DNA of 64,000 nucleotides from a virus, in the IMG/VR virus record IMGVR_UViG_3300010383_000008, positions 1-64,000 of that record; one strand, written 5' to 3'. Positions 1-11,890 of this stretch are shown piece by piece. Every line of letters starts with the position of its first letter. Positions within the stretch are counted from its first letter, which is position 1. The translations under genes were made by a program, and so were the position numbers. The notes beneath the pieces were generated by a model. It saw nothing but the letters and a program-made list of their open reading frames with translations. It had not been told where the DNA came from and did not search any database.

Positions 1-259
1 CGCCGGAAAGAGCCCACTTGAGCATCGCCTCGTGGTTGCCGCGCACACCGAAAAACCAGCGACGGTTAATCCAGTCGAGCGCTTCGTGGGATTCCGGGCC
101 ACGATCGACCAGATCGCCGACGCTGAACAGCCGGTCGCAGGTAGTATCAAAACCGATGGCCTTGAGGAACGCAGCCAGTCGCGTGAAACAACCGTGGATG
201 TCACCGACGACGAAGTCGCGGCCTTGGGTGTTGCGGCCGAGGCGGGCGAAATAGCTCAT
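1..259 (-). CDS. Ser/Thr protein phosphatase, lambda-PPase-like metallophosphoesterase (N-terminal part only; gene runs off the left edge)
   Basis: Minus-strand translation from ATG 259..257 reads MSYFARLGRNTQGRDFVVGDIHGCF..SVGDLVDRGPES..GVRGNHEAML, which carries the GDxHG, GDxxDRG and GNHE motifs. There is no stop before the window edge. ATGA overlap with the upstream ORF. Confidence 0.85.
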   Translation of the reverse strand, partial: MSYFARLGRNTQGRDFVVGDIHGCFTRLAAFLKAIGFDTTCDRLFSVGDLVDRGPESHEALDWINRRWFFGVRGNHEAMLKWALSG

Positions 260-438
260 ACACGTTCCAGGTGGATAGGTTTGCAGTCGTACGGACCGCG
301 GTAGCCGCGCTCTTTTTCGAGCGTGGCCTGCATGCTTCGATGGTCGCTGCTGCGCGACATGCTTTGCACTACCCATGACTCGCGGAGGTCTCGCAAAGTA
401 TAGGTCCAGCCGTCGAGCCACGGGATGTAAGCGATCAT
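256..438 (-). CDS. mini-gene array unit, 60 aa, hypothetical
   Basis: MIAYIPW...KPIHLERV stop; ATGA overlaps at 256-259 and 435-438. Confidence 0.65.
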   Translation of the reverse strand: MIAYIPWLDGWTYTLRDLRESWVVQSMSRSSDHRSMQATLEKERGYRGPYDCKPIHLERV

Positions 439-641
439 GGTATGCGCTCCAAGCGCACCTGGAAAGGCCAGTGGTTACCGTCGCGGCGGTGCGACACGAT
501 CGCATCGTACGCGACGATCGCGACATCTTTCGTCCGGCACAGCGGCACCAGTTGCACGCCGTCGTACGACAGGCCAAGCCAGCGTATGCGCTCTGCATAC
601 GGCGGGGGGCGGTCGTAGCCGCAGCAGCTCCAGACGATCAT
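435..641 (-). CDS. mini-gene array unit, 68 aa
   Basis: MIVWSCC...FQVRLERIP stop; ATGA overlaps on both sides. Confidence 0.65.
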   Translation of the reverse strand: MIVWSCCGYDRPPPYAERIRWLGLSYDGVQLVPLCRTKDVAIVAYDAIVSHRRDGNHWPFQVRLERIP

Positions 642-865
642 GACACGCGCTCTAGCTGAACACGCACCAGGCGTAGGGTGTTGGCATATCTGATGAAGTT
701 TTCATCCGTGCCGAAAATACGCTCTTGTCGTATGGCGGCGGCAGTGCCGACGAGATCGTCGCTGCGGCTGAAGTGTTGCGTTGGCCACGCGCGGTCAGCG
801 AGGGATATTTCGTACTCTCTAGGGCGCCAGTGCGCCATGACGGGCATGAAGATGATCGCGGTCAT
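638..865 (-). CDS. mini-gene array unit, 75 aa
   Basis: Start moved to the internal ATG at 865 (MTAIIFMP), which restores the ATGA overlap with the upstream stop. C-terminus VRVQLERVS. Confidence 0.6.
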   Translation of the reverse strand: MTAIIFMPVMAHWRPREYEISLADRAWPTQHFSRSDDLVGTAAAIRQERIFGTDENFIRYANTLRLVRVQLERVS

Positions 866-1053
866 GGCGCGCGCTCCAGCGTGAATGGGGCCGGGAACCA
901 ATCCGCAGTAACCAACCAGTTGTGCGAATGACTGACCAACGTTCGGCTTGCTTCATCGCTTCGTGCGGCGGTTTCGGAGACGGTGTAGGCCGCGTCCACG
1001 CTGTTTACCACACGTCCGTCGTGGTCGTGGCGCCAGTGCACCCAGATGATCAT
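862..1053 (-). CDS. mini-gene array unit, 63 aa
   Basis: MIIWVHW...PFTLERAP stop; ATGA overlaps. Confidence 0.65.
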   Translation of the reverse strand: MIIWVHWRHDHDGRVVNSVDAAYTVSETAARSDEASRTLVSHSHNWLVTADWFPAPFTLERAP

Positions 1054-1265
1054 GGCGCGCGCTCCAGGCGAAGTTTGGTTATTGCGTACTGGGTGCCGGG
1101 GAACCCACGCCGTCGCGCGCGGGCGTCAGCGCGTGTGCGGCTGGCCGTGCCACTAAAGGCTTCGATGTAGGGCGACCAGATACGCAGCAGCGTAGTTTGT
1201 AGTGAATGGTTGCGAAAGTCGCGGTAGGCATCTTCGATGTCGCTGTACAGCGCCCAGATGATCAC
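1050..1265 (-). CDS. mini-gene array unit, 71 aa
   Basis: GTG start in a GTGA overlap; (V)IIWALY...KLRLERAP stop. Confidence 0.65.
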   Translation of the reverse strand: MIIWALYSDIEDAYRDFRNHSLQTTLLRIWSPYIEAFSGTASRTRADARARRRGFPGTQYAITKLRLERAP

Positions 1266-1444
1266 GGTTCGCGCTCCAGTTGGACGCGCTCGGGGCGGAT
1301 TATCCAGCCGTGGTAGTTGCCGCTGGCCTTGTATAGCCGGACCGCCTCGTGGGGGTCACGGCAAAAACTGTGGCGACACGGGTGGGCGTCGCAATCCGGG
1401 GTGGGCTCGTCCTCGTCGCACGCGGTGCCGATATAGACGATCAC
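1262..1444 (-). CDS. mini-gene array unit, 60 aa
   Basis: GTG start in a GTGA overlap; (V)IVYIGT...RVQLEREP stop. Confidence 0.65.
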   Translation of the reverse strand: MIVYIGTACDEDEPTPDCDAHPCRHSFCRDPHEAVRLYKASGNYHGWIIRPERVQLEREP

Positions 1445-1647
1445 GGTACGCGCTCCAGTTGGACGCGGAAGGGTGTGTGATGCAGGCCAGGATGTTGCCG
1501 CTTATGCTGCTCGATGGCGACATCTACGGAACGGTGCAAGGACACGGACTGCGTACCGTTGTACAGCTCGATCAGTTCGTACATCCACGCGCGGCGCGTA
1601 TTTAGGGCGGGGAGTACGCGCCAGCTGCAACAGGCCCAGGCGATCAC
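1441..1647 (-). CDS. mini-gene array unit, 68 aa
   Basis: GTG start in a GTGA overlap with the stop of the membrane-protein gene; (V)IAWACC...FRVQLERVP stop. Confidence 0.65.
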   Translation of the reverse strand: MIAWACCSWRVLPALNTRRAWMYELIELYNGTQSVSLHRSVDVAIEQHKRQHPGLHHTPFRVQLERVP

Positions 1648-2282
1648 CCCAGCAGGCCGACGAACTGCGGGCGCAGCCCCTTCGGGACCTCGTAGGGCGG
1701 GTTCTTCGGGTCGCGCGCCTGCTTGGCCTTGAGGTTGGCCACGCGCAGGTCGAAGGTCGGTTCGATCTTGATGCGCGGGCGCACCCAGCCGGGGAGCATG
1801 TACTTGTCGATCAGCACGGCCAGCATCTGGAGCATGCGGTCCTCGTTGATCCAGTAGGTGTGTTTCTGGCCCTCTTCGCTGGGCGAGAGGACGGTGATGC
1901 GGTAGGTTGGATTCGGTCCCACGGCTGGGGCGGGCGCACCGGCCAGGCTGTCGAGGCCGAGCACGCCGCGCGGCGGTGGGCCGGCGATTGCGCGCGGCGT
2001 GTCGTCGTGACGGCGTTGCGGTGCATCCGGGTCGCGTGGTTGCGCCGAAGTGATGAGCGTGTTCAGCGACTCATCGATACCGGGCGGTGGCGGCAGTGGT
2101 GCCGGGTCTTCGGGATGCGCGTGCTGGATACGCCGCCAGATCAGCCACAGGTAGAGCGTGATGCCACCGAACCAGGTGAACGTACCGGGTAGCGAATAGC
2201 CGTGTCCGATGAGCCAGGCGCTAAGTGCACTGACTACGCCGACTATCGCGACGGCGTAAAGTACGGTGATCACCCATTTCAT
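1644..2282 (-). CDS. membrane protein, 212 aa, hypothetical
   Basis: Start moved to ATG 2282 (MKWVITVLYAVAIVGVV), preceded by AAGGAG. Two N-terminal hydrophobic helices, a Pro-rich linker and a C-terminal globular part. Confidence 0.65.
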   Translation of the reverse strand: MKWVITVLYAVAIVGVVSALSAWLIGHGYSLPGTFTWFGGITLYLWLIWRRIQHAHPEDPAPLPPPPGIDESLNTLITSAQPRDPDAPQRRHDDTPRAIAGPPPRGVLGLDSLAGAPAPAVGPNPTYRITVLSPSEEGQKHTYWINEDRMLQMLAVLIDKYMLPGWVRPRIKIEPTFDLRVANLKAKQARDPKNPPYEVPKGLRPQFVGLLG

Positions 2283-2287
2283 GACGG

Positions 2288-2695
2288 TTACTCCTTCTTG
2301 CTGTCGGCTTTCTCGATCATGTAGTACCGGGTCAGGAGCTCGGGCAGCGCGTCGGTGATGACGGCTTCGACCACCTGTCCGGCGTTCTCTATTGCCGCGT
2401 ACGGTGAACTGCTGGGCTTGGCGGTCCACCAGTCGAGGCCGGCCTCGACGCCGAGGCGTACGGCTTGACGCAACAGGTCCTCGATCGTGGTCGGTGGCAG
2501 CCCGCGCACGGTCAGCGCTGGATGATCGAGTTTGACGCCGATGTTGGCCAGCGCGGTGACCAGCGCGCTGTCGTCGACGTCGATGCGGTTGCCAGCGATG
2601 CGCAAGGCAGCGGCACGCAGGATGGCGGCGATCAACGAGCGTTGACGGAAACGCGGGGCGGGCGGGGCTTCGGTGGTTTTTGCAACGGCGGGCAT
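2288..2695 (-). CDS. hypothetical protein, 135 aa
   Basis: Intact ORF in the operon orientation. Its TAA stop sits inside the AAGGAG site of the next gene. Confidence 0.6.
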   Translation of the reverse strand: MPAVAKTTEAPPAPRFRQRSLIAAILRAAALRIAGNRIDVDDSALVTALANIGVKLDHPALTVRGLPPTTIEDLLRQAVRLGVEAGLDWWTAKPSSSPYAAIENAGQVVEAVITDALPELLTRYYMIEKADSKKE

Positions 2696-2726
2696 GGGCT
2701 ATTTCCGAGTGGAGAGAGGCGTGGGA

Positions 2727-2876
2727 TTACGGGCGACGGCGCTTGAACGGGTGGTAGTACGCCATCGCGCCGGCGATGAAAGCGTTGGTACCGCTGGCGA
2801 ATGAATGGCCCAGCCAGGTGTTCGCCCCTGCCATGATGATGTTGCCGACGAAGATCACGAGCCACCACGTTTTCAC
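2727..2876 (-). CDS. small hydrophobic protein, 49 aa (GTG start)
   Basis: GTG 2876..2874 forms a GTGA overlap with the upstream stop. Sequence VKTWWLVIFVGNIIMAGANTWLGHSFASGTNAFIAGAMAYYHPFKRRRP. Confidence 0.45.
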   Translation of the reverse strand: MKTWWLVIFVGNIIMAGANTWLGHSFASGTNAFIAGAMAYYHPFKRRRP

Positions 2877-3373
2877 AGCGGCGCGGCCGAGTACTTGGCG
2901 ACGTGGTAACCGCGCGCGGTCATCTCGGCCTTGAGCTTGCTGGCGTCCTGCGGTTCGCCGGTCATGCGCTGGCGGTTGGCCGCGAGCATCTTCCAGCTGT
3001 CTTCCGGGTCGCGGCCGGCGGAGGCCAGCACCGGCTCGCCGTATTCTTTGTTCGCAGGGTTGGGATCGGCTTCGGTAACGAAGAAGAGGTAGACCACGGG
3101 CGTTCTCCTGACTTTGTTGATGACATGCCGCCACCGGGTGTCGCGGCGGATGGTGAATTTGAAACGAGCGAGATCATGGTCGTAAAGGAAGCGATTAACG
3201 CGACCTTCGCTGTACCAGCCGAGGGCGGGTAGTACGTCGTACAGTGCGGCACGGCATTCGTCGGGGTCGCGTTGCAAGCTGTGATAAAAGGCGATTTGCG
3301 TGTCGTATGTGTAAAAGAATTTACGCCGACGCAGCACATCTTCATCGCAATAACCGAGCAGGTACCAGACCAT
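2873..3373 (-). CDS. hypothetical protein, 166 aa; resembles two fused array units
   Basis: Start at ATG 3373 (MVWYLLGY), a TGATG overlap. The internal ..FKFTIRRD.. followed by ..VVYLFFV.. looks like a decayed unit junction. Confidence 0.55.
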   Translation of the reverse strand: MVWYLLGYCDEDVLRRRKFFYTYDTQIAFYHSLQRDPDECRAALYDVLPALGWYSEGRVNRFLYDHDLARFKFTIRRDTRWRHVINKVRRTPVVYLFFVTEADPNPANKEYGEPVLASAGRDPEDSWKMLAANRQRMTGEPQDASKLKAEMTARGYHVAKYSAAPL

Positions 3374-3555
3374 CAGCGCCTCCGCGGTTGGACGCGGCGT
3401 ATCCGTAGTTGTTTGACGGGGAAGAATATCCAACCTTGGACGTCGATCGCGCTGCTACCGAAATTTGAGGCCCAGCGCAGCATGCTATCGCGGTCGTGTA
3501 AATCGCCACTACCGCGGAAATAAATCGTGTGCCACGGGTTGGTATTACGGCTCAT
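3373..3555 (-). CDS. degenerate array unit, 60 aa
   Basis: MSRNTNPWHTIYF...QLRIRRVQPRRR. Overlaps the upstream gene by 11 nt where the junction has an insertion (LERINEP). Confidence 0.45.
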   Translation of the reverse strand: MSRNTNPWHTIYFRGSGDLHDRDSMLRWASNFGSSAIDVQGWIFFPVKQLRIRRVQPRRR

Positions 3556-3745
3556 TGATGCGCTCCAGACAGAAGCCCAGTGGCACGTAGTAAGACCACT
3601 GCGCGTAGTCGTCGGAGTGCGCGAAGTTGGCTGCGCAGACCTCTGCGCTATGCGCGATGTACCGGTAGTTGAAATCCATCAAGCAGTTGACGAGATCGCT
3701 GGTGGTCCAGGTGCCGTATGGGCTGTATGGCGCGTAGACGATCAC
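3545..3745 (-). CDS. mini-gene array unit, 66 aa
   Basis: GTG start in a GTGA overlap; (V)IVYAPY...GFCLERINEP stop. Confidence 0.6.
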   Translation of the reverse strand: MIVYAPYSPYGTWTTSDLVNCLMDFNYRYIAHSAEVCAANFAHSDDYAQWSYYVPLGFCLERINEP

Positions 3746-3927
3746 GGCACGCGCTCCAGCTGGAGCGCATGCACGTAGTCTTGGCGGTTGGGCGGGCGGT
3801 TGGCACGCGCCTGGTCAACGCTGCTGCCTATGGCTTGCCGGGCGGCGCTGTTATAAACCAGCCACTGCGCGAGGTTGGGACGTACGCGCTGTGGGGGCAT
3901 GTTCGATGCGAAAAACGCGATGATCAT
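3742..3927 (-). CDS. mini-gene array unit, 61 aa
   Basis: MIIAFFA...HALQLERVP stop; ATGA overlap upstream, GTGA overlap downstream. Confidence 0.65.
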   Translation of the reverse strand: MIIAFFASNMPPQRVRPNLAQWLVYNSAARQAIGSSVDQARANRPPNRQDYVHALQLERVP

Positions 3928-4187
3928 ATGACGCGCTCCAGACGGAAAGCTTTGGTTTGCAGTCTTCCGCTATCGCCGGTCAGCTTCTGTTCCCACACGG
4001 GGTCGACCCGTGGCGACCATGACAGGTGTTCTGCGAGCCAGGTGCGGAGTACGGAGTTCAGCGTGTATTCGTACCTGTGCATGAAATCAAGCCACGGGCA
4101 ATACACGATGAAACCGGGCGGTTCGGGGCGTGAATGGGTGCGGTGATGGGTAGGAATCTGCGCGCCCCAGCGGTCAGGGCCGGGCAT
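3924..4187 (-). CDS. array unit with N-terminal extension, 87 aa
   Basis: ..GFIVYCPW...AFRLERVI stop. The upstream junction is degenerate, so the start is uncertain (ATG 4187 overlaps the upstream gene by 14 nt). Confidence 0.5.
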   Translation of the reverse strand: MPGPDRWGAQIPTHHRTHSRPEPPGFIVYCPWLDFMHRYEYTLNSVLRTWLAEHLSWSPRVDPVWEQKLTGDSGRLQTKAFRLERVI

Positions 4188-4368
4188 GGGCGATTACTCG
4201 TGTGAGGCGAAAGCCATAGGCCGCCCAAGGGCCGCTAACGGCTAATCCAGTTTCTATATCGGCCGCGCGCAAGCATTCGGCGGCGTTTCGGCTAATGGTA
4301 GGACCGACGAAGGTTTCGGCTAATGCGGTCGGGTCGGCAGCGACCCAGAACACATACACAACCGTCAT
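4174..4368 (-). CDS. array unit, 64 aa, divergent C-terminus
   Basis: Start moved to ATG 4368 (MTVVYVFW) in an ATGA overlap; C-terminus FRLTRVIAHARP. Confidence 0.55.
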   Translation of the reverse strand: MTVVYVFWVAADPTALAETFVGPTISRNAAECLRAADIETGLAVSGPWAAYGFRLTRVIAHARP

Positions 4369-4568
4369 GGCGTGCGCTCCAACTGGATGCGGCGCATATA
4401 ACCGTTGCGCGCAAGATCGCCGAGTACGACTCCTTGCCGTTTCGCTTCGGCCGCGATCGTGGGGAACGCGAGTATGTCGCGAGAGAAATACTGGACGGGC
4501 CACGCCCTAAATACAGTGTCTTCGATACGATCCCAACCGGGTGACCAGGGCATGAAGACGAGGCTCAT
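4365..4568 (-). CDS. mini-gene array unit, 67 aa
   Basis: MSLVFMPW...RRIQLERTP stop; ATGA overlaps. Confidence 0.65.
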   Translation of the reverse strand: MSLVFMPWSPGWDRIEDTVFRAWPVQYFSRDILAFPTIAAEAKRQGVVLGDLARNGYMRRIQLERTP

Positions 4569-4780
4569 GGCGCGCGTTCCAGAAGTACGGGTTCGCCCAG
4601 CGGGGCGTGACTGACGGGGTAGCTGGGGATTTCGCAGGCGATAGCGCGGGCATTGCTGATACTGGTGAGTGTGTCGCGCGCGAACGTGGCGCGCAGCGGA
4701 TCGTACTCTTCCAGTAACCAGACTTCGATATCGTCGTCGCTGGACGCGGCCGAGTCGCCGGTACAGATGTAGGCGATCAT
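4565..4780 (-). CDS. mini-gene array unit, 71 aa
   Basis: MIAYICT...PVLLERAP stop; ATGA overlaps. Confidence 0.65.
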   Translation of the reverse strand: MIAYICTGDSAASSDDDIEVWLLEEYDPLRATFARDTLTSISNARAIACEIPSYPVSHAPLGEPVLLERAP

Positions 4781-4968
4781 GATGTGCGTTCCAATGCGAG
4801 CGGTACTATGCGAAGCGCGGGATCGCTATAACGGGCAGCGTAGGCGTCGTTGGCGTTGCTGCGTATGCTGCCGCGAATATCTGGAAAGTCGGGGTCCAAT
4901 AGTAATTTTGACAGGCGGTGTTGTACGAAATACGCGCCGGCATCCGTGGCGAAGAATGCGGTGGTCAT
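4777..4968 (-). CDS. mini-gene array unit, 63 aa
   Basis: MTTAFFA...PLALERTS stop; ATGA overlaps. Confidence 0.65.
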   Translation of the reverse strand: MTTAFFATDAGAYFVQHRLSKLLLDPDFPDIRGSIRSNANDAYAARYSDPALRIVPLALERTS

Positions 4969-5147
4969 GGCACGCGCTCCAGTGTGATGGGGTATGCGTC
5001 GTAATCACTGCGGTCGATCCCGGTATCGCGGTAGCCACGTAGCGCGCTGGCGGGGGTGCTGGAAATGTCAGCGAGCCGCCCGGAGGTGAGCCACAAAAGC
5101 ACAGTGCCGCTATCGACCTCGCTGGCGCCTACGATCCAGGCGGTCAT
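4965..5147 (-). CDS. mini-gene array unit, 60 aa
   Basis: MTAWIVG...YPITLERVP stop; ATGA overlaps. Confidence 0.65.
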   Translation of the reverse strand: MTAWIVGASEVDSGTVLLWLTSGRLADISSTPASALRGYRDTGIDRSDYDAYPITLERVP

Positions 5148-5350
5148 GTCATGCGCTCCAGTTTGAACGGGGCCGCCTGGTAATTACTGCTGTATCGTCC
5201 ATGATAAGCAGAGACGAATGCGTCGATGGTGCGGTCGGGGGTGCCGCGTATGTCATAGAGCTCACTGCCGTAGTCATCCAGAATGTTGGCGACTTCTTCT
5301 GTTATGTCGCCGGGCCTGACGGAGATGGGTATGGCGATGTACACGATCAC
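5144..5350 (-). CDS. mini-gene array unit, 68 aa
   Basis: Start moved to GTG 5350 (GTGA overlap); (V)IVYIAI...APFKLERMT stop. Confidence 0.6.
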   Translation of the reverse strand: MIVYIAIPISVRPGDITEEVANILDDYGSELYDIRGTPDRTIDAFVSAYHGRYSSNYQAAPFKLERMT

Positions 5351-5532
5351 AGGACGCGCTCCAGCCGCAGCGGTTCGGCGCGTAGATTTTGCCCGCGATC
5401 CCGTGCGGCCAGTGCTTCGCGCTCGGAGCTGCGCAGGTACCGGCATAGCGATATATCACCTAAGAGCAGCTCGTGCAGTTGGGCGGTGTATAGCTGGGGC
5501 GGGCAGTTGGTCGGCAGGTAGGCGATGGTCAT
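5347..5532 (-). CDS. mini-gene array unit, 61 aa
   Basis: MTIAYLP...EPLRLERVL stop; ATGA overlap upstream, GTGA overlap downstream. Confidence 0.65.
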   Translation of the reverse strand: MTIAYLPTNCPPQLYTAQLHELLLGDISLCRYLRSSEREALAARDRGQNLRAEPLRLERVL

Positions 5533-5729
5533 GGCACGCGCTCCAGCTGGACATTTTGTGCGCGAATGCGGGGGGCTACGTAAATGGGGCCGTCGAAATG
5601 GCCCACGCTGTAACGGGCATAGAGTTCCCTGGCCAGCGCTGGTGTGCTGGCGAACGAGTGGCGCACGGTGCGGTTATGCAGGTACGGCGTTTCGTCGATC
5701 GTGCATCGGGTACCGACGTAGACGATCAT
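5529..5729 (-). CDS. mini-gene array unit, 66 aa
   Basis: Start moved to ATG 5729 (MIVYVGT) in an ATGA overlap; ..QNVQLERVP stop. Confidence 0.6.
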   Translation of the reverse strand: MIVYVGTRCTIDETPYLHNRTVRHSFASTPALARELYARYSVGHFDGPIYVAPRIRAQNVQLERVP

Positions 5730-5908
5730 GGGGCGCGCTCCAACTGGATGCGGATGATGGTGCGGCACGTCCCAGGGATATGGGAAGATGCATGTACGCG
5801 GCGGTCGCGGGCGTCTTCGGCGGTGCGCGCGAACGAGCGCAGCACCATCGTGGTGCATAAATCGATAAGGTCTGGGAATGGTGCAGCGCTACCGGCATAG
5901 ACGATCAT
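5726..5908 (-). CDS. mini-gene array unit, 60 aa
   Basis: Start moved to ATG 5908 (MIVYAGS) in an ATGA overlap; ..IIRIQLERAP stop. Confidence 0.6.
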   Translation of the reverse strand: MIVYAGSAAPFPDLIDLCTTMVLRSFARTAEDARDRRVHASSHIPGTCRTIIRIQLERAP

Positions 5909-6117
5909 GGCGCGCGCTCCAGCTGGATCGTGCTGGCGACGGCGTTGGCGCGGGCGTGCCCGTTGTACGCAGCGATCGCGGCGGTGGGGGTACGCGCGAA
6001 TGTCTGGGTGATGGGGTCGTCGCGGTTGCGCATCCATAGCATGAGCGATGAGCGTGTGTCGGCGCGGTAGGAGCGGGCGGTGGTTGCCAGTTGGCGGTGG
6101 CTTACATAGCACAGCAT
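5905..6117 (-). CDS. mini-gene array unit, 70 aa (first unit)
   Basis: Start moved to ATG 6117 (MLCYVSH), 4 nt after the upstream TAG; ..STIQLERAP stop. Confidence 0.6.
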   Translation of the reverse strand: MLCYVSHRQLATTARSYRADTRSSLMLWMRNRDDPITQTFARTPTAAIAAYNGHARANAVASTIQLERAP

Positions 6118-6121
6118 GGCG

Positions 6122-6574
6122 CTACTCCAGCATGTCGGGGTGGCCCTGCCGCTTGAATTGCGGCATGGCGCGGGTGTCCTTGAGTAGGTCCAGTGTCTCC
6201 AGCGTCCAGTCGTTGTTGGTGGCCATGCTGGCGATGTCTTCGGCGACCGCGGTGATCGAGCGGTGGGCGTAGGGGATGTCCAGCTTGCGTGCCAGCAGGA
6301 ACAGCTCATCACTGCTGTAGCGGCGCGACAGCGGGTGGGGGAGTGGCGTCAGGTTGACGGGCTTGACAGGCGGGGGCGTTATGACGGCGTCAGCCTCCAT
6401 CGCCAGGTCGATTGCCCACAGTATCGCCCCCAGCGACAGGCCGCGCTTCAGGATGATCTCCAGACAGACGGGCAGGCGCGTCTCGGGGGGCACTCCGAGC
6501 GCCGCACGGAGCGCTAGGCGCTCGTGATAGGTTAAATCATGCAGATCAGCCAAAGTGGGGAGCACGGTCATCAT
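6122..6574 (-). CDS. hypothetical protein, 150 aa; first gene of the leftward early block
   Basis: Intact ORF directly downstream of the AT-rich intergenic region. No motif recognised. Confidence 0.6.
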   Translation of the reverse strand: MMTVLPTLADLHDLTYHERLALRAALGVPPETRLPVCLEIILKRGLSLGAILWAIDLAMEADAVITPPPVKPVNLTPLPHPLSRRYSSDELFLLARKLDIPYAHRSITAVAEDIASMATNNDWTLETLDLLKDTRAMPQFKRQGHPDMLE

Positions 6575-7073
6575 TGGGGTTCGAAACCTCTACTTAAATT
6601 TGACCAGAGTACAAACCCCCGAAATGTCATGTTGTACCGGTCAGTACAATAAACAAAATGCCGTGAAGATGGCGTCACAGCGTCGTGAAGGTTCGTAGCA
6701 GAACGTGAAGGGAAAGTCAAAACGCGTTATACAGTAACATGAGCTGTGCTATTTTCGGTGTAGTAAAATCAATGACTTAGATCATCTACTAAGATATTTC
6801 TTGTTCAGAAAACTATTTTTTTTCTCCCACACTCGATGGTTCTGAATGTAAGTCATTGATTGTTGCGCAGCAGCATTTCGACTGCCGCCGAAAAAATCCA
6901 ACGCGTGATGTCGATGAATAGAATAAAAACAACGACTTAGCGTCGAAATAGGCACAAAACGCAGGGGCATATTTGCTCGTTCAGAAATCGTTCACACATG
7001 CCTCTGTGCACTGGGCGCTTCGATCGCAAACGAATCGCGTTGTTCTTCGTACATCCTGGTGCCGGGTTGCATG
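6575..7073. promoter_or_regulatory. AT-rich ~500 bp non-coding control region (candidate early promoters and/or origin)
   Basis: Visibly AT-rich against a GC-rich genome. GTGAAG occurs three times at 6663-6710, spaced 22 and 20 bp. GTACAA/TTGTAC inverted motifs lie at 6610-6650. A 13-bp perfect inverted repeat, AATCAATGACTTA, has arms at 6768-6780 and 6849-6861. A direct repeat ATATTT..GTTCAGAAA lies at ~6793-6820 and ~6969-6988. There is a long T-run around 6825-6832. Confidence 0.55.
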
Positions 7074-7104
7074 AAAAAAGCCCGCCACCGTTGCAGTGGC
7101 GGGC
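7074..7104 (-). terminator. rho-independent terminator of block B
   Basis: 9-bp stem GCCCGCCAC/GTGGCGGGC with a 7-nt loop, followed on the minus strand by TTTTTT. Lies 9 nt after the TAA of gene 7113..8036. Confidence 0.8.
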
Positions 7105-7112
7105 TCGGCTGC

Positions 7113-8036
7113 TTACTTCGCCGCAGCCTTCTTCATCATCGCCTGGGCGTGGGCCAGCACGGCGGACAGCGTCTTGGACTTCTGCTCGGCGCGCTTGCGG
7201 CGGCTTTCCTTGTAGCGGATTTCCATGATGTCCAGACAGTGCTCCAAGCTGTGAATCTGCTTGAAGCTGCCGTCTTTCTCCTGCACCACGCAGTAGGGCA
7301 TCGTGTTGTCACGCCCGTCGTCCGCCACCGCCGGCCAGCCGAACGCCTCGACGGTGAGCTGGAGGTAGATGTGCACTTCCTCCAGCGCGTCGAAAATCTG
7401 CTCGTAGTTGGCCTTGCGCTCCACGCCGCCGGCGACGTTGAACAGCCGCTCGCCAGTGACGGGATTGAACGCCAGTTCCTCGCCGTTGTCCGGGCCGAGA
7501 CCGACCGGGGCGTCGACGTGATCCTCGCGGGTATCGGCCGTCTCCGGCAGATCGGTGTCCCCGCGCGGGTCCAGCGCCTTGCGGTAGGCCATGTTGCCGC
7601 CGAAGTTCACCGCTTTCTGCACGGCGTAGCAGAGGCTGTAGATCGTGCCGACCGCCTGCGTGCTCTCGGCGCCGCCGATGATGAAATCGATGGCGGTGCC
7701 CAGATCGTGCCCGGCGGCGGCGATGATGCCGCCCAGCAGTTGCGCCTGGGCACGGGCCTGCTCGTCCTCCAGTCCGCGCCCGGTGTTCTCCGAGACGTTG
7801 ACCAGCGCGCGGTCGAGGAAGCTCTTGGCCAGCGGGCTGAGTCGAAACTCGGCCAGCTTGCCCGCCGCCACCTCGTGGTGCGGGGCGGCCGGCGCAGCCG
7901 GCTGCTCCGGGGCGCTGTCGCGCCCGCCATCGTCCAAGGCGCCCAGCGCCGCGGTGACGTCGACGGTGTCTTCCACCGCCAGCGCACCGCTGGCCTTGGG
8001 GGCATTCTTCAGGGTCAGGGTCTGCTTCGAAGCCAT
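7113..8036 (-). CDS. hypothetical protein, ~307 aa
   Basis: Long ORF. ATG 8036 (MASKQ) sits 8 nt after GGAG, whereas the ATG at 8042 is too close to the SD. No motif recognised. Confidence 0.65.
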   Translation of the reverse strand: MASKQTLTLKNAPKASGALAVEDTVDVTAALGALDDGGRDSAPEQPAAPAAPHHEVAAGKLAEFRLSPLAKSFLDRALVNVSENTGRGLEDEQARAQAQLLGGIIAAAGHDLGTAIDFIIGGAESTQAVGTIYSLCYAVQKAVNFGGNMAYRKALDPRGDTDLPETADTREDHVDAPVGLGPDNGEELAFNPVTGERLFNVAGGVERKANYEQIFDALEEVHIYLQLTVEAFGWPAVADDGRDNTMPYCVVQEKDGSFKQIHSLEHCLDIMEIRYKESRRKRAEQKSKTLSAVLAHAQAMMKKAAAK

Positions 8037-8174
8037 GATCATTTCTCCAGTTTGCGTGGTTGGTTGGGTTTACGGTGCTACGCGGCGCGGGTGCTCGTAC
8101 GCCATCCCAGTCAGGTTGTCTCTGTGCGCCCTAGATTCGTTGGGCCAACGTGTGCAGCACACCGTAGGCCGGTG

Positions 8175-8587: not shown

Positions 8588-8876
8588 TCAGGAAAAGCGC
8601 CCGGCGTAGCGACGCCAGCCGTGCGCGATGGAATGCCGTTCGTAGCCGAACGCCCAGCGGTAGGCGCGCAGCCACACCGAAAACAGGATTGCTGCCGCCT
8701 CGGCCTGAATCAGGCCCTCGGTACTCGTGCCGAAGAACAGGAACAGGACCGCGCCGTGCAACACGACGTCGGTCCAGCCCTTGTAGCCGACCAGCCGGCG
8801 CACGGTGCGCGCCGACAGGTGGGTGATCAGCAGGAAGAACGCCGCGAAGCTGACCAGCGCTTCAGCGAACCACACG
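8588..8876 (-). CDS. putative membrane protein, ~96 aa (GTG start)
   Basis: Hydrophobic sequence VWFAEALVSFAAFFLLITHL..VVLHGAVLFLFFG..AAAILFSVWL. GTG 8876 overlaps the upstream gene end; the start is uncertain. Confidence 0.5.
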
Positions 8877-10537: not shown

Positions 10538-11026
10538 ATGGCCCACATTACCGCCGAGGAAGCCGGCAGCTACAACATCTGCGCCTTCCTCGATATGCTC
10601 CGCTGGTCCGAAATCGGCGAATCGATGCTCGGCCAGTCGGACGACGGTTATAACGTGCTGGTCGGCTCCACGCCGACGCGCATGAAGCTCTTCGACAGCT
10701 ACGCGCGGCACCCGAACGTGTACGACGCGACCTGCCGCTCGACCGCGGCCGGCGGCTACCAGTTCCTGTTCCGTATCTGGACCGCCTACCAGCGCCAGCT
10801 CAAGCTGGAGGACTTCTCGCCGATCAACCAGGACCGGGCCGCGATCCAGATTCTGAAAGAGCAGCACGCCTACGGGCAGATCATGAAGGGCTTCGCCTTT
10901 TCCGGCATCAAGCGGGTGGCCAACATCTGGGCGTCCCTGCCCGACGCCGGCTATGGCCAGCACGAACACCCGATGAAGGCCCTGCTGGAGCAGTACGAAG
11001 CCGCTCGCGCGCGGTACCCGGCATGA
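10538..11026 (+). CDS. endolysin, lambda R-like lytic transglycosylase
   Basis: AFLDMLRWSEIG.., ..STAAGGYQFLFRIWTAYQRQLKLEDFSP.NQD.., ..NIWASLPDAGYGQHEH closely parallel the lambda R sequence. Confidence 0.9.
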   Translation: MAHITAEEAGSYNICAFLDMLRWSEIGESMLGQSDDGYNVLVGSTPTRMKLFDSYARHPNVYDATCRSTAAGGYQFLFRIWTAYQRQLKLEDFSPINQDRAAIQILKEQHAYGQIMKGFAFSGIKRVANIWASLPDAGYGQHEHPMKALLEQYEAARARYPA

Positions 11027-11223
11027 GCGAGCCGGCCTCGGTGAGCATCTCCATCCCGCTGGCCTGCGGCTGCGTGCTGCGCCACACGGTGCAGGAGCTG
11101 CCCAACGTGACCGAAAGCTACTCCGGCCCCGAGGGCGACGCGTTCCTGTCCTACGCGCGCGCCATCCTGGGCTACTGGTTCCGCAACCACGCCTCGCACC
11201 ACCACTGCCCGGAGCAAAAATGA
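11023..11223 (+). CDS. hypothetical protein, 66 aa
   Basis: ATGA overlaps on both sides. Confidence 0.55.
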   Translation: MSEPASVSISIPLACGCVLRHTVQELPNVTESYSGPEGDAFLSYARAILGYWFRNHASHHHCPEQK

Positions 11224-11468
11224 GCCTGAAAATCGTCGATTTTCCGCAGTCGGCGGTGCACACGCCCAAGGCGCTGGCGCTGGCGTTGCGCGAACTGGCG
11301 GAGGACCTCGAAAAAGGCACGATTCCCGAGGTGGCGCGCATCCATCTGCTGTTCGAGCACGAAAATGCGACGGTCTCCTACGCGGCGATCGGCAAGGCGT
11401 GCAGCGATTACCACCGGATCGGCGTGTTCACCCACGCCGGCATTGTGTTGTCGGAAACCATGGACTGA
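11220..11468 (+). CDS. hypothetical protein, 82 aa
   Basis: ATGA overlap upstream; intact ORF. Confidence 0.55.
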   Translation: MSLKIVDFPQSAVHTPKALALALRELAEDLEKGTIPEVARIHLLFEHENATVSYAAIGKACSDYHRIGVFTHAGIVLSETMD

Positions 11469-11473
11469 TCGCC

Positions 11474-11890
11474 ATGTTCGAGTGTCCGAGCTACCTGAAA
11501 ATCGGGCTTTTTGCCCTCGCCGCAGCGCTCTTGGCCGTTGGCGTCGGGTACTGGCGCCACCACATCTTTGAAAATGGCTTCGCCGCCGGCGTCAAAAGCC
11601 AGCAGGACGCGGACAAAAAGCTCGAAAAGCACAACGAAAAGGTGCACGACGTCACAAAACAGGCCATTTCCGGCGTTGATGTCGCGGCAAGCACCGCCGC
11701 GAGCACCGCCAAGGCGCACACGACCGTCGTCGTCAAGACGGTGGAGAAAATCGTCCATGAAAACCCTGATTTTGCTGCTGTGCGCCGCCCTGCTGAGCTT
11801 GAGCGGCTGCGCCTCGAACAAATTACAAGGTTACGCGCGCTCGCAGCTCCTGGCGCCCAGCCCGCCGCAGGCAGCTCTTCGCCCGAATAA
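11474..11890 (+). CDS. i-spanin (Rz-like)
   Basis: Start at ATG 11474 (MFECPSYLKIGLFALAAALLAVGVGYW). N-terminal TM segment, then a charged helical periplasmic domain, in the lysis cassette. Confidence 0.7.
   Translation: MFECPSYLKIGLFALAAALLAVGVGYWRHHIFENGFAAGVKSQQDADKKLEKHNEKVHDVTKQAISGVDVAASTAASTAKAHTTVVVKTVEKIVHENPDFAAVRRPAELERLRLEQITRLRALAAPGAQPAAGSSSPE

Follow-up and report, generated by a model that had tools for sequence, protein, structure and literature searches.

A probable operon of twenty small tandem paralogs, chained by stop-start overlaps, in an uncultured soil phage

The IMG/VR virus record IMGVR_UViG_3300010383_000008 carries, at the start of the 64,000-nucleotide (nt) stretch that we analyzed (positions 1 to 64,000, hereafter the window), a chain of very small genes on the minus strand. 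A first-pass annotation, made from the sequence letters, had described 22 chained minus-strand open reading frames (ORFs) at 256-6117. All of them are present as claimed: twenty of 60-75 amino acids (aa), one of 87 aa and one of 166 aa. The count of four-nt ATGA/GTGA stop-start overlaps in the block is likewise exactly 20. The remaining overlaps measure 14 nt at 4174-4187, 11 nt at 3545-3555 and 1 nt at 3373, and there are three short gaps, one of 4 nt before the first unit and two, of 31 and 5 nt, around a set of central genes. Twenty of the ORFs, which we call units, score 33-68 bits against a hidden Markov model (HMM) of a single protein family; at 60-87 residues each, these copies take up about 6% of the genome. 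The same HMM found no member outside the array in the whole window. We think it likely that this array belongs to one long polycistronic operon carrying a lineage-specific family of 20 tandem small alpha/beta paralogs plus one doubtful member. The parts of the array are as follows.

3545-6117, minus strand: Block 1, 13 family units, recognized from ORFs, GC content at third codon positions (GC3) and orthologs; family HMM 33-60 bits
5905-6117, 5726-5908, 5529-5729, 5347-5532, 5144-5350, 4965-5147, 4777-4968, minus strand: first seven units of Block 1
4565-4780, 4365-4568, 4174-4368, 3924-4187, 3742-3927, 3545-3745, minus strand: last six units of Block 1
256-1647, minus strand: Block 2, 7 family units, recognized from ORFs and GC3; family HMM 48-68 bits
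1441-1647, 1262-1444, 1050-1265, 862-1053, 638-865, 435-641, 256-438, minus strand: units of Block 2
5908, 5729, 5532, 5350, 5147, 4968, 4780, 4568, 4368, 3927, minus strand: first ten four-nt overlaps
3745, 2876, 1647, 1444, 1265, 1053, 865, 641, 438, 259, minus strand: second ten four-nt overlaps
4174-4187, minus strand: variant junction overlapping by 14 nt; C-terminal extension on the upstream unit, N-terminal extension (MPGPDRWGAQIPTH...) on the downstream 87-aa unit
3373-3555, minus strand: doubtful or very divergent 60-aa unit (MSRNTNPW...RIRRVQPRRR), with the 11-nt overlap upstream

We searched 1.84 billion representative proteins exhaustively with a profile (E <=1e-3) and obtained 27 matches, mostly the window's own units, with nine non-self members. 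P0016, an internally repetitive protein of 302 aa that came up in this search, was discarded as a spurious low-complexity match. Looking up the contigs yielded five further lineages, six in all with the window and all uncultured:

L119 group: L118-L124, 99-100% mutual identity (Logan SRR2345996x)
L125: single locus (ENA, contig JX_farmland), too short to show the central architecture
L138 group: L138, L142 and L143 (Logan SRR336746xx)
L139 group: L139 and L140 (Logan SRR145556xx)
L141: single locus (ENA, contig GD_forest)

The junction x-L-E-R-x-P / ATGA is common to all five of these, and the reading frame and length of the units are kept across the six lineages. Where the central stretch is covered, the architecture is units, a module of 166-, 49-, 135- and 212-aa proteins, units again, and a phosphatase gene. 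An exact DNA scan of CTGGAGCGCGYGCCRTGATCGT in IMG/VR gave no matches. A relaxed 15-base pattern gave at least 117 loci, and each of the 80 listed has a single match; loci L001-L117 encode no family member and are chance matches. Searching metagenome and genome contigs with CTGGAGCGCGYGCCRTGATCRT produced 10 single-match loci, none encoding a family member, and none is encoded by 127 unrelated loci fetched by pattern. Word-seeded protein searches (A1, A6) recovered almost only the window itself or the known lineages.

Are these mini-ORFs genes? The first-pass annotation had taken them to be, and two kinds of evidence agree. The minus frames have the GC distribution by codon position expected of coding DNA (GC3 0.59-0.83, GC2 lowest, in a genome of 63% GC), a pattern that the long plus-strand ORFs do not show. 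We also compared nonsynonymous (dN) and synonymous (dS) divergence between the window (256-6117) and L119 (8435-14409) over 12 pooled unit pairs. Whole family units (38-72% identity) have dN 0.40, dS 1.24 and dN/dS 0.32; their interiors taken alone have dN 0.46, dS 1.50 and dN/dS 0.31; and the interspersed non-family genes (71-85% identity) have dN 0.16, dS 0.52 and dN/dS 0.31. Per unit, dN/dS ranges from 0.18 to 0.65. The units are coding and under purifying selection. Their divergence is not due to relaxed or positive selection, as the constraint on them equals that on their neighbors; they are about 2.4-2.9 times more diverged than these at synonymous and nonsynonymous sites alike (a rough ratio, since dS is near saturation), and unit 5905-6117 alone resembles the backbone genes (dS 0.64). 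Plus-strand ORFs of up to 239 aa and the high regularity of the motif could suggest that the repeats are non-coding DNA or RNA elements with incidental mini-ORFs, or that the real genes lie on the plus strand. However, codon-position GC supports the minus frames only, dN/dS is 0.31, motif variants are synonymous, frames and lengths persist in all six lineages, and tRNA and Rfam scans of the region found no match. We consider both versions of this idea effectively refuted.

The units begin and end alike. Most start with M/V-I-[VIA]-[YW], and 19 ORFs have L-E-R near the C-terminus, both as first described; aligned, the ends read M-I-[VIA]-[YW] and x-L-E-R-[VA]-P. The interiors had been said to share almost nothing, which overstates their divergence, for they have in common a central W and the motif F-x-R-[ST]-x-x-x-A (alignments A1 and A2) and are statistically related. 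We cut off the first 7 and last 9 residues and scored what remained with leave-one-out profile HMMs against shuffled sequences. Among the window units alone, 11 of 21 beat at least 97.5% of their own shuffles. When 67 units from the six lineages were used, leaving out any sequence that shared at least 30% identity with the test unit, 16 of the 21 were reached by no more than 8 of 300 shuffles, seven of them by none. By these comparisons the units are homologous throughout, not merely at their ends; paralogs are 17-41% identical to one another, and their isoelectric points span 4.1-11.8. The first-pass annotation had offered two options. Unrelated cassettes sharing a linker do not fit with interior-only profiles that detect 16 of 21 units; the other option, a fast-diverging paralog family built as strand, helices and strand, agrees with these profiles and with the structural models.

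AlphaFold2 models unit 435-641 as a compact alpha/beta domain (pLDDT 88.7, pTM 0.73) with a strand at residues 2-7, a helix at 15-22, a short hairpin whose internal strands are only 2 residues long, a helix at 38-48 and a strand at 58-63. Unit 5905-6117 (pLDDT 79.8) is given the same terminal strands. The conserved N- and C-terminal segments are thus predicted to be beta-strands belonging to a single compact domain, and it is the intervening helices and loops that vary. This bears on a different explanation of the conserved ends, namely that the units are virion-delivered or processed proteins whose termini are targeting or cleavage signals and not part of the folding core. In T4, the internal proteins have a short targeting sequence in common and vary greatly elsewhere. 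The conserved ends, variable middle and wide charge range of the units call such cargo families to mind, and the invariant Leu-Glu-Arg could by the same resemblance be a protease site. However, both termini are modeled as strands of a single domain at a pLDDT of about 90, an in-frame fusion of two units is tolerated (see below), and the operon continues into phosphatase, primase and replication genes on the strand opposite to the terminase. We regard virion cargo as very unlikely.

Does the family belong to one already characterized? Pfam and PHROGs scans of 10 units, and then of the 29 members of alignment A2, gave nothing below E 0.0037, and each Pfam or PHROGs family that appeared matched one member only. 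The family profile reached a best E of 0.12 against PDB sequences. Membership in a known family, which the first-pass annotation had named as a finding that would overturn its account, was looked for in Pfam-A, PHROGs v4, PDB and BFVD with no significant match in any of them. The family is previously undescribed and has no Pfam, PHROGs, PDB or BFVD relative.

The junction between units is dense with information. CTGGAGCGC-N5-RTGA, allowing at most one mismatch, occurs 16 times in the array and once elsewhere in the window, where 0.42 copies per 64 kb are expected and none of 100 shuffles reaches 17. As had been noted, CTGGAGCGC-N5-RTG places a GGAG about 8 nt before the next start, in one orientation; the same GGAG lies within CTG-GAG, the Leu-Glu codons. 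We counted codons over 56 canonical junctions from the six lineages. Leu is encoded by CTG in 46, TTG in 6, CTA in 3, CTT in 1 and CTC in none (CTC is 25% in the genome); Glu by GAG in 50 and GAA in 6 (genome GAG 60%); and Arg by CGC in 52, CGT in 3 and CGG in 1 (genome CGC 63%). Start codons are ATG in 49 and GTG in 7. This uniformity exceeds what genome usage predicts (nominal binomial p of about 1e-6 to 1e-7), and the excess of xxG-GAG fits a GGAG Shine-Dalgarno sequence embedded in the Leu-Glu codons. The preference for CGY at Arg is not accounted for by GGAG. L-E-R is retained through 20 synonymous variants in the 56 junctions, some of which (CTA-GAG, CTT-GAG, GAA) weaken or destroy the GGAG; synonymous variation with the peptide retained therefore shows selection at the protein level.

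The final codon is constrained as well. Its third base must be A or G, since that base doubles as the start of the ATG or GTG overlapping the TGA stop. Pro, encoded by CCA or CCG, is the last residue in 40 of 56 junctions, although CCA accounts for only 5% of the Pro codons of the genome. The stop is always UGA in canonical junctions, and Pro precedes the overlap at, for example, 5905-5922 and 1050-1067. Termination might be slowed by a C-terminal Pro ahead of UGA, to the benefit of re-initiation. Programmed -1 frameshifting into polyproteins was considered and rejected, because G-CCA-TGA at the junction is not a slippery sequence and there is an ordinary start codon with a Shine-Dalgarno sequence. 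The extended DNA consensus described earlier therefore mostly mirrors the conserved peptide (Q-L-E-R-V/A-P stop, then M-I-V-Y) against a codon background that is strongly biased, with the Shine-Dalgarno constraint in addition.

How does the array change over time? We grouped units by BLAST and set out their order in the window and in L119 (a slash marks the block break):

Window: E F D... G H I B J C K L / A D. B M A N
L119: E B B F D. G H I C K C. L / A A. M A. N

Set against the five related lineages, the array gains, loses, duplicates and relocates units with unit precision, in line with the birth and death proposed earlier. The backbone order is kept, even across lineages whose backbone proteins share 42-59% identity, and upon it are superimposed whole-unit insertions, losses, tandem duplications, dispersed copies and relocation between blocks. 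The arrays of the window, L119, L141 and L142 differ by whole units bounded by canonical junctions. Block 2 holds 7 units in the window, 7 in L119, 5 in L141 and 5 in L142/L143. Duplicates specific to L119 begin at 8650/8823, 10154/10533 and 12946/13152. In the distant L138, a block-2 unit shares 60% identity with unit 1262-1444, for which block 2 of L119 has no counterpart. In L142 (5525-5914) an in-frame fusion joins the first two units in a single protein of 129 aa, with domains scoring 18.7 and 32.5 bits; the old junction there reads ...FELRRHNP-VYFIVYCG..., and the stop-start overlap is lost. Hypermutation by a diversity-generating retroelement was discarded as a source of the variation, no reverse transcriptase being seen near the array.

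Such whole-unit changes raise the question of whether the junctions are primarily recombination linkers acting at the DNA level, joining independent cassettes, with the conserved protein termini a by-product. Unit-precise differences between lineages, with units in differing positions and blocks, are compatible with this, as is a unit dS 2.4-2.9 times that of the backbone at equal dN/dS, which fits a wider and older gene pool. Codon identity above usage also extends to Arg CGC (52 of 56), outside the GGAG. However, the interiors are homologous, so the cassettes are not unrelated, and L-E-R held through 20 synonymous variants in 56 junctions reflects selection on protein. Silent differences are frequent between orthologous junctions of the window and L119, and nothing indicates homogenization; the stretch of identity is imperfect and spans only some 20-28 nt, and the junctions lack intergenic DNA, a promoter or a stem-loop. 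We judge a primary role as linker unlikely. The first-pass suggestion that the linker acts as a homology patch is plausible as a secondary effect, since every indel respects the junctions; it is at most secondary because protein and Shine-Dalgarno constraints already explain their conservation.

Two junctions had been described as decayed. At 4174-4187, the 14-nt overlap and the N-terminal extension MPxPDRWGAxIP recur in L125 (692-705), L139/L140 and L142 (6459-6472), so that they are kept in four lineages; the arrangement is missing from L119. At 3545-3555, it is the unit type after the junction that is kept in four lineages, and neither junction looks like a relic of decay. That unit, 3373-3555, is 67% identical to L119 10924-11112, and its type is also found in L139 and L142. 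It scores 0-13 bits against the family profile (14.5 bits for the L142 copy), with an hhalign probability of 0.5%, and its membership in the family is doubtful.

How might such an operon work? In the reading we favor, a single mRNA would be read from a control region upstream of the array, and ribosomes would re-initiate at each overlap by way of the embedded GGAG, giving roughly coordinated synthesis of all units. Unequal recombination at junctions would alter the number of units without disturbing translation of the rest; since all junctions are equivalent, unit number could change without polar effects. The products may be diversified binders of host factors, serving takeover of the host or anti-defense. 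They would be made before replication, given that the array lies between the control region and the phosphatase, primase and replication genes. To the binder function itself, for which position and mode of evolution are the only basis, we give a little less than an even chance.

Several observations weigh against this reading of the array. First, the gene calls and the translational coupling are deduced from sequence. No promoter was identified, a simple scan of 1-7300 having found no sigma-70-like sites; the operon promoter is placed in the control region by inference. Second, five units (5144-5350, 4965-5147, 4777-4968, 3373-3555 and 1441-1647) failed the strict interior test. The AlphaFold2 alignments consist of the paralogs themselves, so the common fold is partly imposed. 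Foldseek found no significant neighbor of the two models (best E 1.0 in PDB and 1.9 in BFVD), with superpositions at TM-scores of 0.41 or less and root-mean-square deviations mostly of 7-14 Å; the fold assignment therefore extends to the order of secondary-structure elements only. Third, orthologous junctions are not independent samples, so that the p values for codon bias are optimistic. Finally, simple vertical descent is insufficient to produce a dS excess of about 2.4-2.9 times at equal dN/dS. Candidate causes of this excess are hidden paralogy, units traded with a wider pool of phages, and substitution that is locally faster.

Which known systems does the array resemble? Poxvirus K3L and the multigene families (MGF) of African swine fever virus are virus gene families that behave as "genomic accordions" through tandem duplication. 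In T4, segmental amplification of the gene for the ToxN inhibitor TifA (tifA) has been described (PMC9391042). The array shares with these accordions tandem paralogs of an accessory gene whose copy number and content vary between close relatives, change by recombination between repeats, and a role in host antagonism that is inferred. Unlike accordions, its copies are old, diverged and each under purifying selection, the backbone order is stable, and what is repeated is a whole gene, linked to the next through a dual-coded stop-start junction. A multigene family is defined by tandem paralogs that share descent and by copy number and content that vary among related genomes, and the array has both; it is best classed as operating most like the viral multigene families or accordions, and also like translationally coupled operons.

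The first-pass annotation had likened the junctions to start-associated sequences (SAS) or boundary sequences of other phages. The SAS of cluster K mycobacteriophages are 13-bp elements (GGGATAGGAGCCC) that lie before genes of many unrelated phamilies (PMC3203893); they precede non-structural genes and are conserved beyond what pairing with 16S rRNA requires (PMC3203893). Like SAS, the junction is an asymmetric repeat with a Shine-Dalgarno core, a few bases before starts and in one orientation. Unlike SAS, every copy is coding sequence, namely the 3' end of a family gene. Within the window the repeat precedes a family unit (counting the doubtful 3373-3555) with one exception, the phosphatase, and its conservation is mostly explained by the encoded L-E-R-x-P and M-I-V-Y. 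The "boundary sequences" of lambdoid phages are short conserved sequences at gene boundaries. Promoter-early stem-loops (PeSLs) of T4-type phages are intergenic modules of promoter and stem-loop terminator that flank unrelated ORFans (PMC2839356). The array has in common with both the presence of short conserved gene-boundary sequences among small accessory genes, where genes are gained, lost or replaced. It differs from PeSLs in having no intergenic DNA, no sigma-70-like sites (0 found) and no junction stem-loops, and in that its genes are paralogous. At the level of fold, the modeled order of unit 435-641 (strand-helix-hairpin-helix-strand) is compatible with that of ferredoxin-like domains such as Cas2, RRM, PII and CutA, which are beta-alpha-beta-beta-alpha-beta with a four-stranded antiparallel sheet, and ferredoxin-like folds dominate the non-significant Foldseek lists. 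With no significant superposition (E >=1.0) and no sequence relationship found, a ferredoxin-like topology is only hinted at.

Big eukaryotic DNA viruses are well known for large tandem gene families that are old and diversified. We know of no family of this kind described in a phage of about 65 kb, and a literature search for a large, old, diversified one in a phage of this size found none. Absent from curated libraries and restricted to a few uncultured contigs, at least two of them labeled farmland or forest, this is a clean new family. The junction is a compact natural case of triple use of one sequence, as protein core, Shine-Dalgarno sequence and stop-start overlap, and because of this triple use gene number is evolvable in whole units. 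If the units are anti-defense or takeover binders, they would provide some 70 natural variants of one small scaffold with differing surfaces, a route to new host targets and a model for how counter-defense repertoires evolve.

We can take this one step further, to a possibility that we put forward tentatively and hold to be less likely than not: the array may be a plug-and-play effector library, a rapidly re-assortable panel of small binders directed at host defense or takeover targets. In such a library, the 25-30-nt junction would at once encode the closing beta-strand of one unit, bind the ribosome and start translation for the next, and serve as a homology patch, and units could be duplicated, deleted, moved, fused and exchanged between phages at any junction, with translation of the operon left intact. 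If this were so, the 2.4-2.9-fold excess in dS would be the footprint of exchange with the wider phage gene pool.

The genes and signals around the units are as follows.

7078-7106, minus strand: intrinsic terminator of the upstream 309-aa gene (7113-8042), with a 13-bp stem, 9 GC pairs and a T run
6575-7077, minus strand: AT-richer non-coding control region before the operon, about 500 bp
6122-6574, minus strand: first gene of the operon, a 150-aa non-family protein, 85-87% identical to L119 7969-8430
2873-3373, minus strand: 166-aa protein, variable in its N-terminal half and highly conserved in its C-terminal half
2727-2876, minus strand: 49-aa hydrophobic protein, probably membrane, 79% identical to L119 11606-11755
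2288-2695, minus strand: 135-aa protein of the central module, 78% identical to L119; also in L138, L139 and L141
1644-2282, minus strand: 212-aa protein of the central module, 71-72% identical to L119; also in L138, L139 and L141
2-259, minus strand: start of a calcineurin-like Metallophos Ser/Thr phosphatase gene (Pfam PF00149, E 6.6e-13) that runs off the window

The terminator at 7078-7106 is identical in the relative L119. The 1-kb block 6001-7000 has a GC content of 0.547, against 0.59-0.67 in adjacent blocks. Within the control region lie three CTTCACG repeats (6710-6704, 6690-6684 and 6668-6662), spaced by 20 and 22 nt, and all three are kept in L119; these repeats are possible operator or phage-specific promoter elements. 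Mean column identity of the control region (window 6575-7110 against L119 7425-7985) is 93%, above that of neighboring coding DNA. The 150-aa gene that follows ends in ..M-L-E-stop and places CTGGAG 4 nt before the ATG of the first unit. Its protein had no match in a Pfam scan, and as a query against viral and metagenome contigs it found no related locus. At the other end, an ATGA overlap links the last unit to the phosphatase; downstream of the latter, the relatives carry a DUF5906 primase and replication genes. The strand of the array is opposite to that of the terminase and of the large plus-strand ORFs that come after the array.

The central stretch had been described as three inserted unrelated genes. 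It contains four (166, 49, 135 and 212 aa), and they are not a recent insertion, since the module is kept in every lineage where that stretch is available. In the 212-aa protein, a hydrophobic segment lies at the N-terminus and a conserved domain at the C-terminus, with a proline-rich linker. Pfam scans of the 135-aa and 212-aa proteins found no match, nor did tblastn of the 212-aa protein against 50,697 phage records. The 166-aa protein, which had been taken for two fused units, is 71% identical to its L119 counterpart (11109-11609) and has homologs in L139 and L141. Its C-terminal half is nearly invariant (PVVYL.FVTE.DP...GEPVLASAGRDPEDSWKMLAANRQRMT). Neither a fusion nor membership in the family finds support in its comparison with the family, for which hhalign gives a probability of 1%; its HMM score of 11 bits arises through a short interior motif only.

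Where does this phage belong? The closest cultured phages are Pseudomonas phages of the KPP25/phiR18 type (TerL 42% and primase 31% identity), and the large genes are 30-42% identical to those of Kochitakasuvirus phages. The window looks like a member of an uncultured, unclassified phage group. In the regions examined, neither KPP25-type phages nor Bordetella phage PHB04 have a family member. The phosphatase gene has 78.5% nucleotide identity to PHB04 (window 89-223), the sole DNA-level match to any GenBank phage; this suggests that the gene moved horizontally, and the host range may be betaproteobacterial. PHB04, a 94-kb myovirus, has no other match in window 1-7000.

Close relatives also differ among themselves. 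Between L119 and L120, which are 99% identical, microdiversity is not concentrated in family units; differences cluster at about 4500-5000 and in the 166-aa gene. The bin 11000-11499 holds 43 of the 126 differences, almost all of them in that gene, a clustering that suggests a recombination patch. The gene for the 49-aa mini-protein, single in the window, is present as two tandem copies in L119 (11606-11901).

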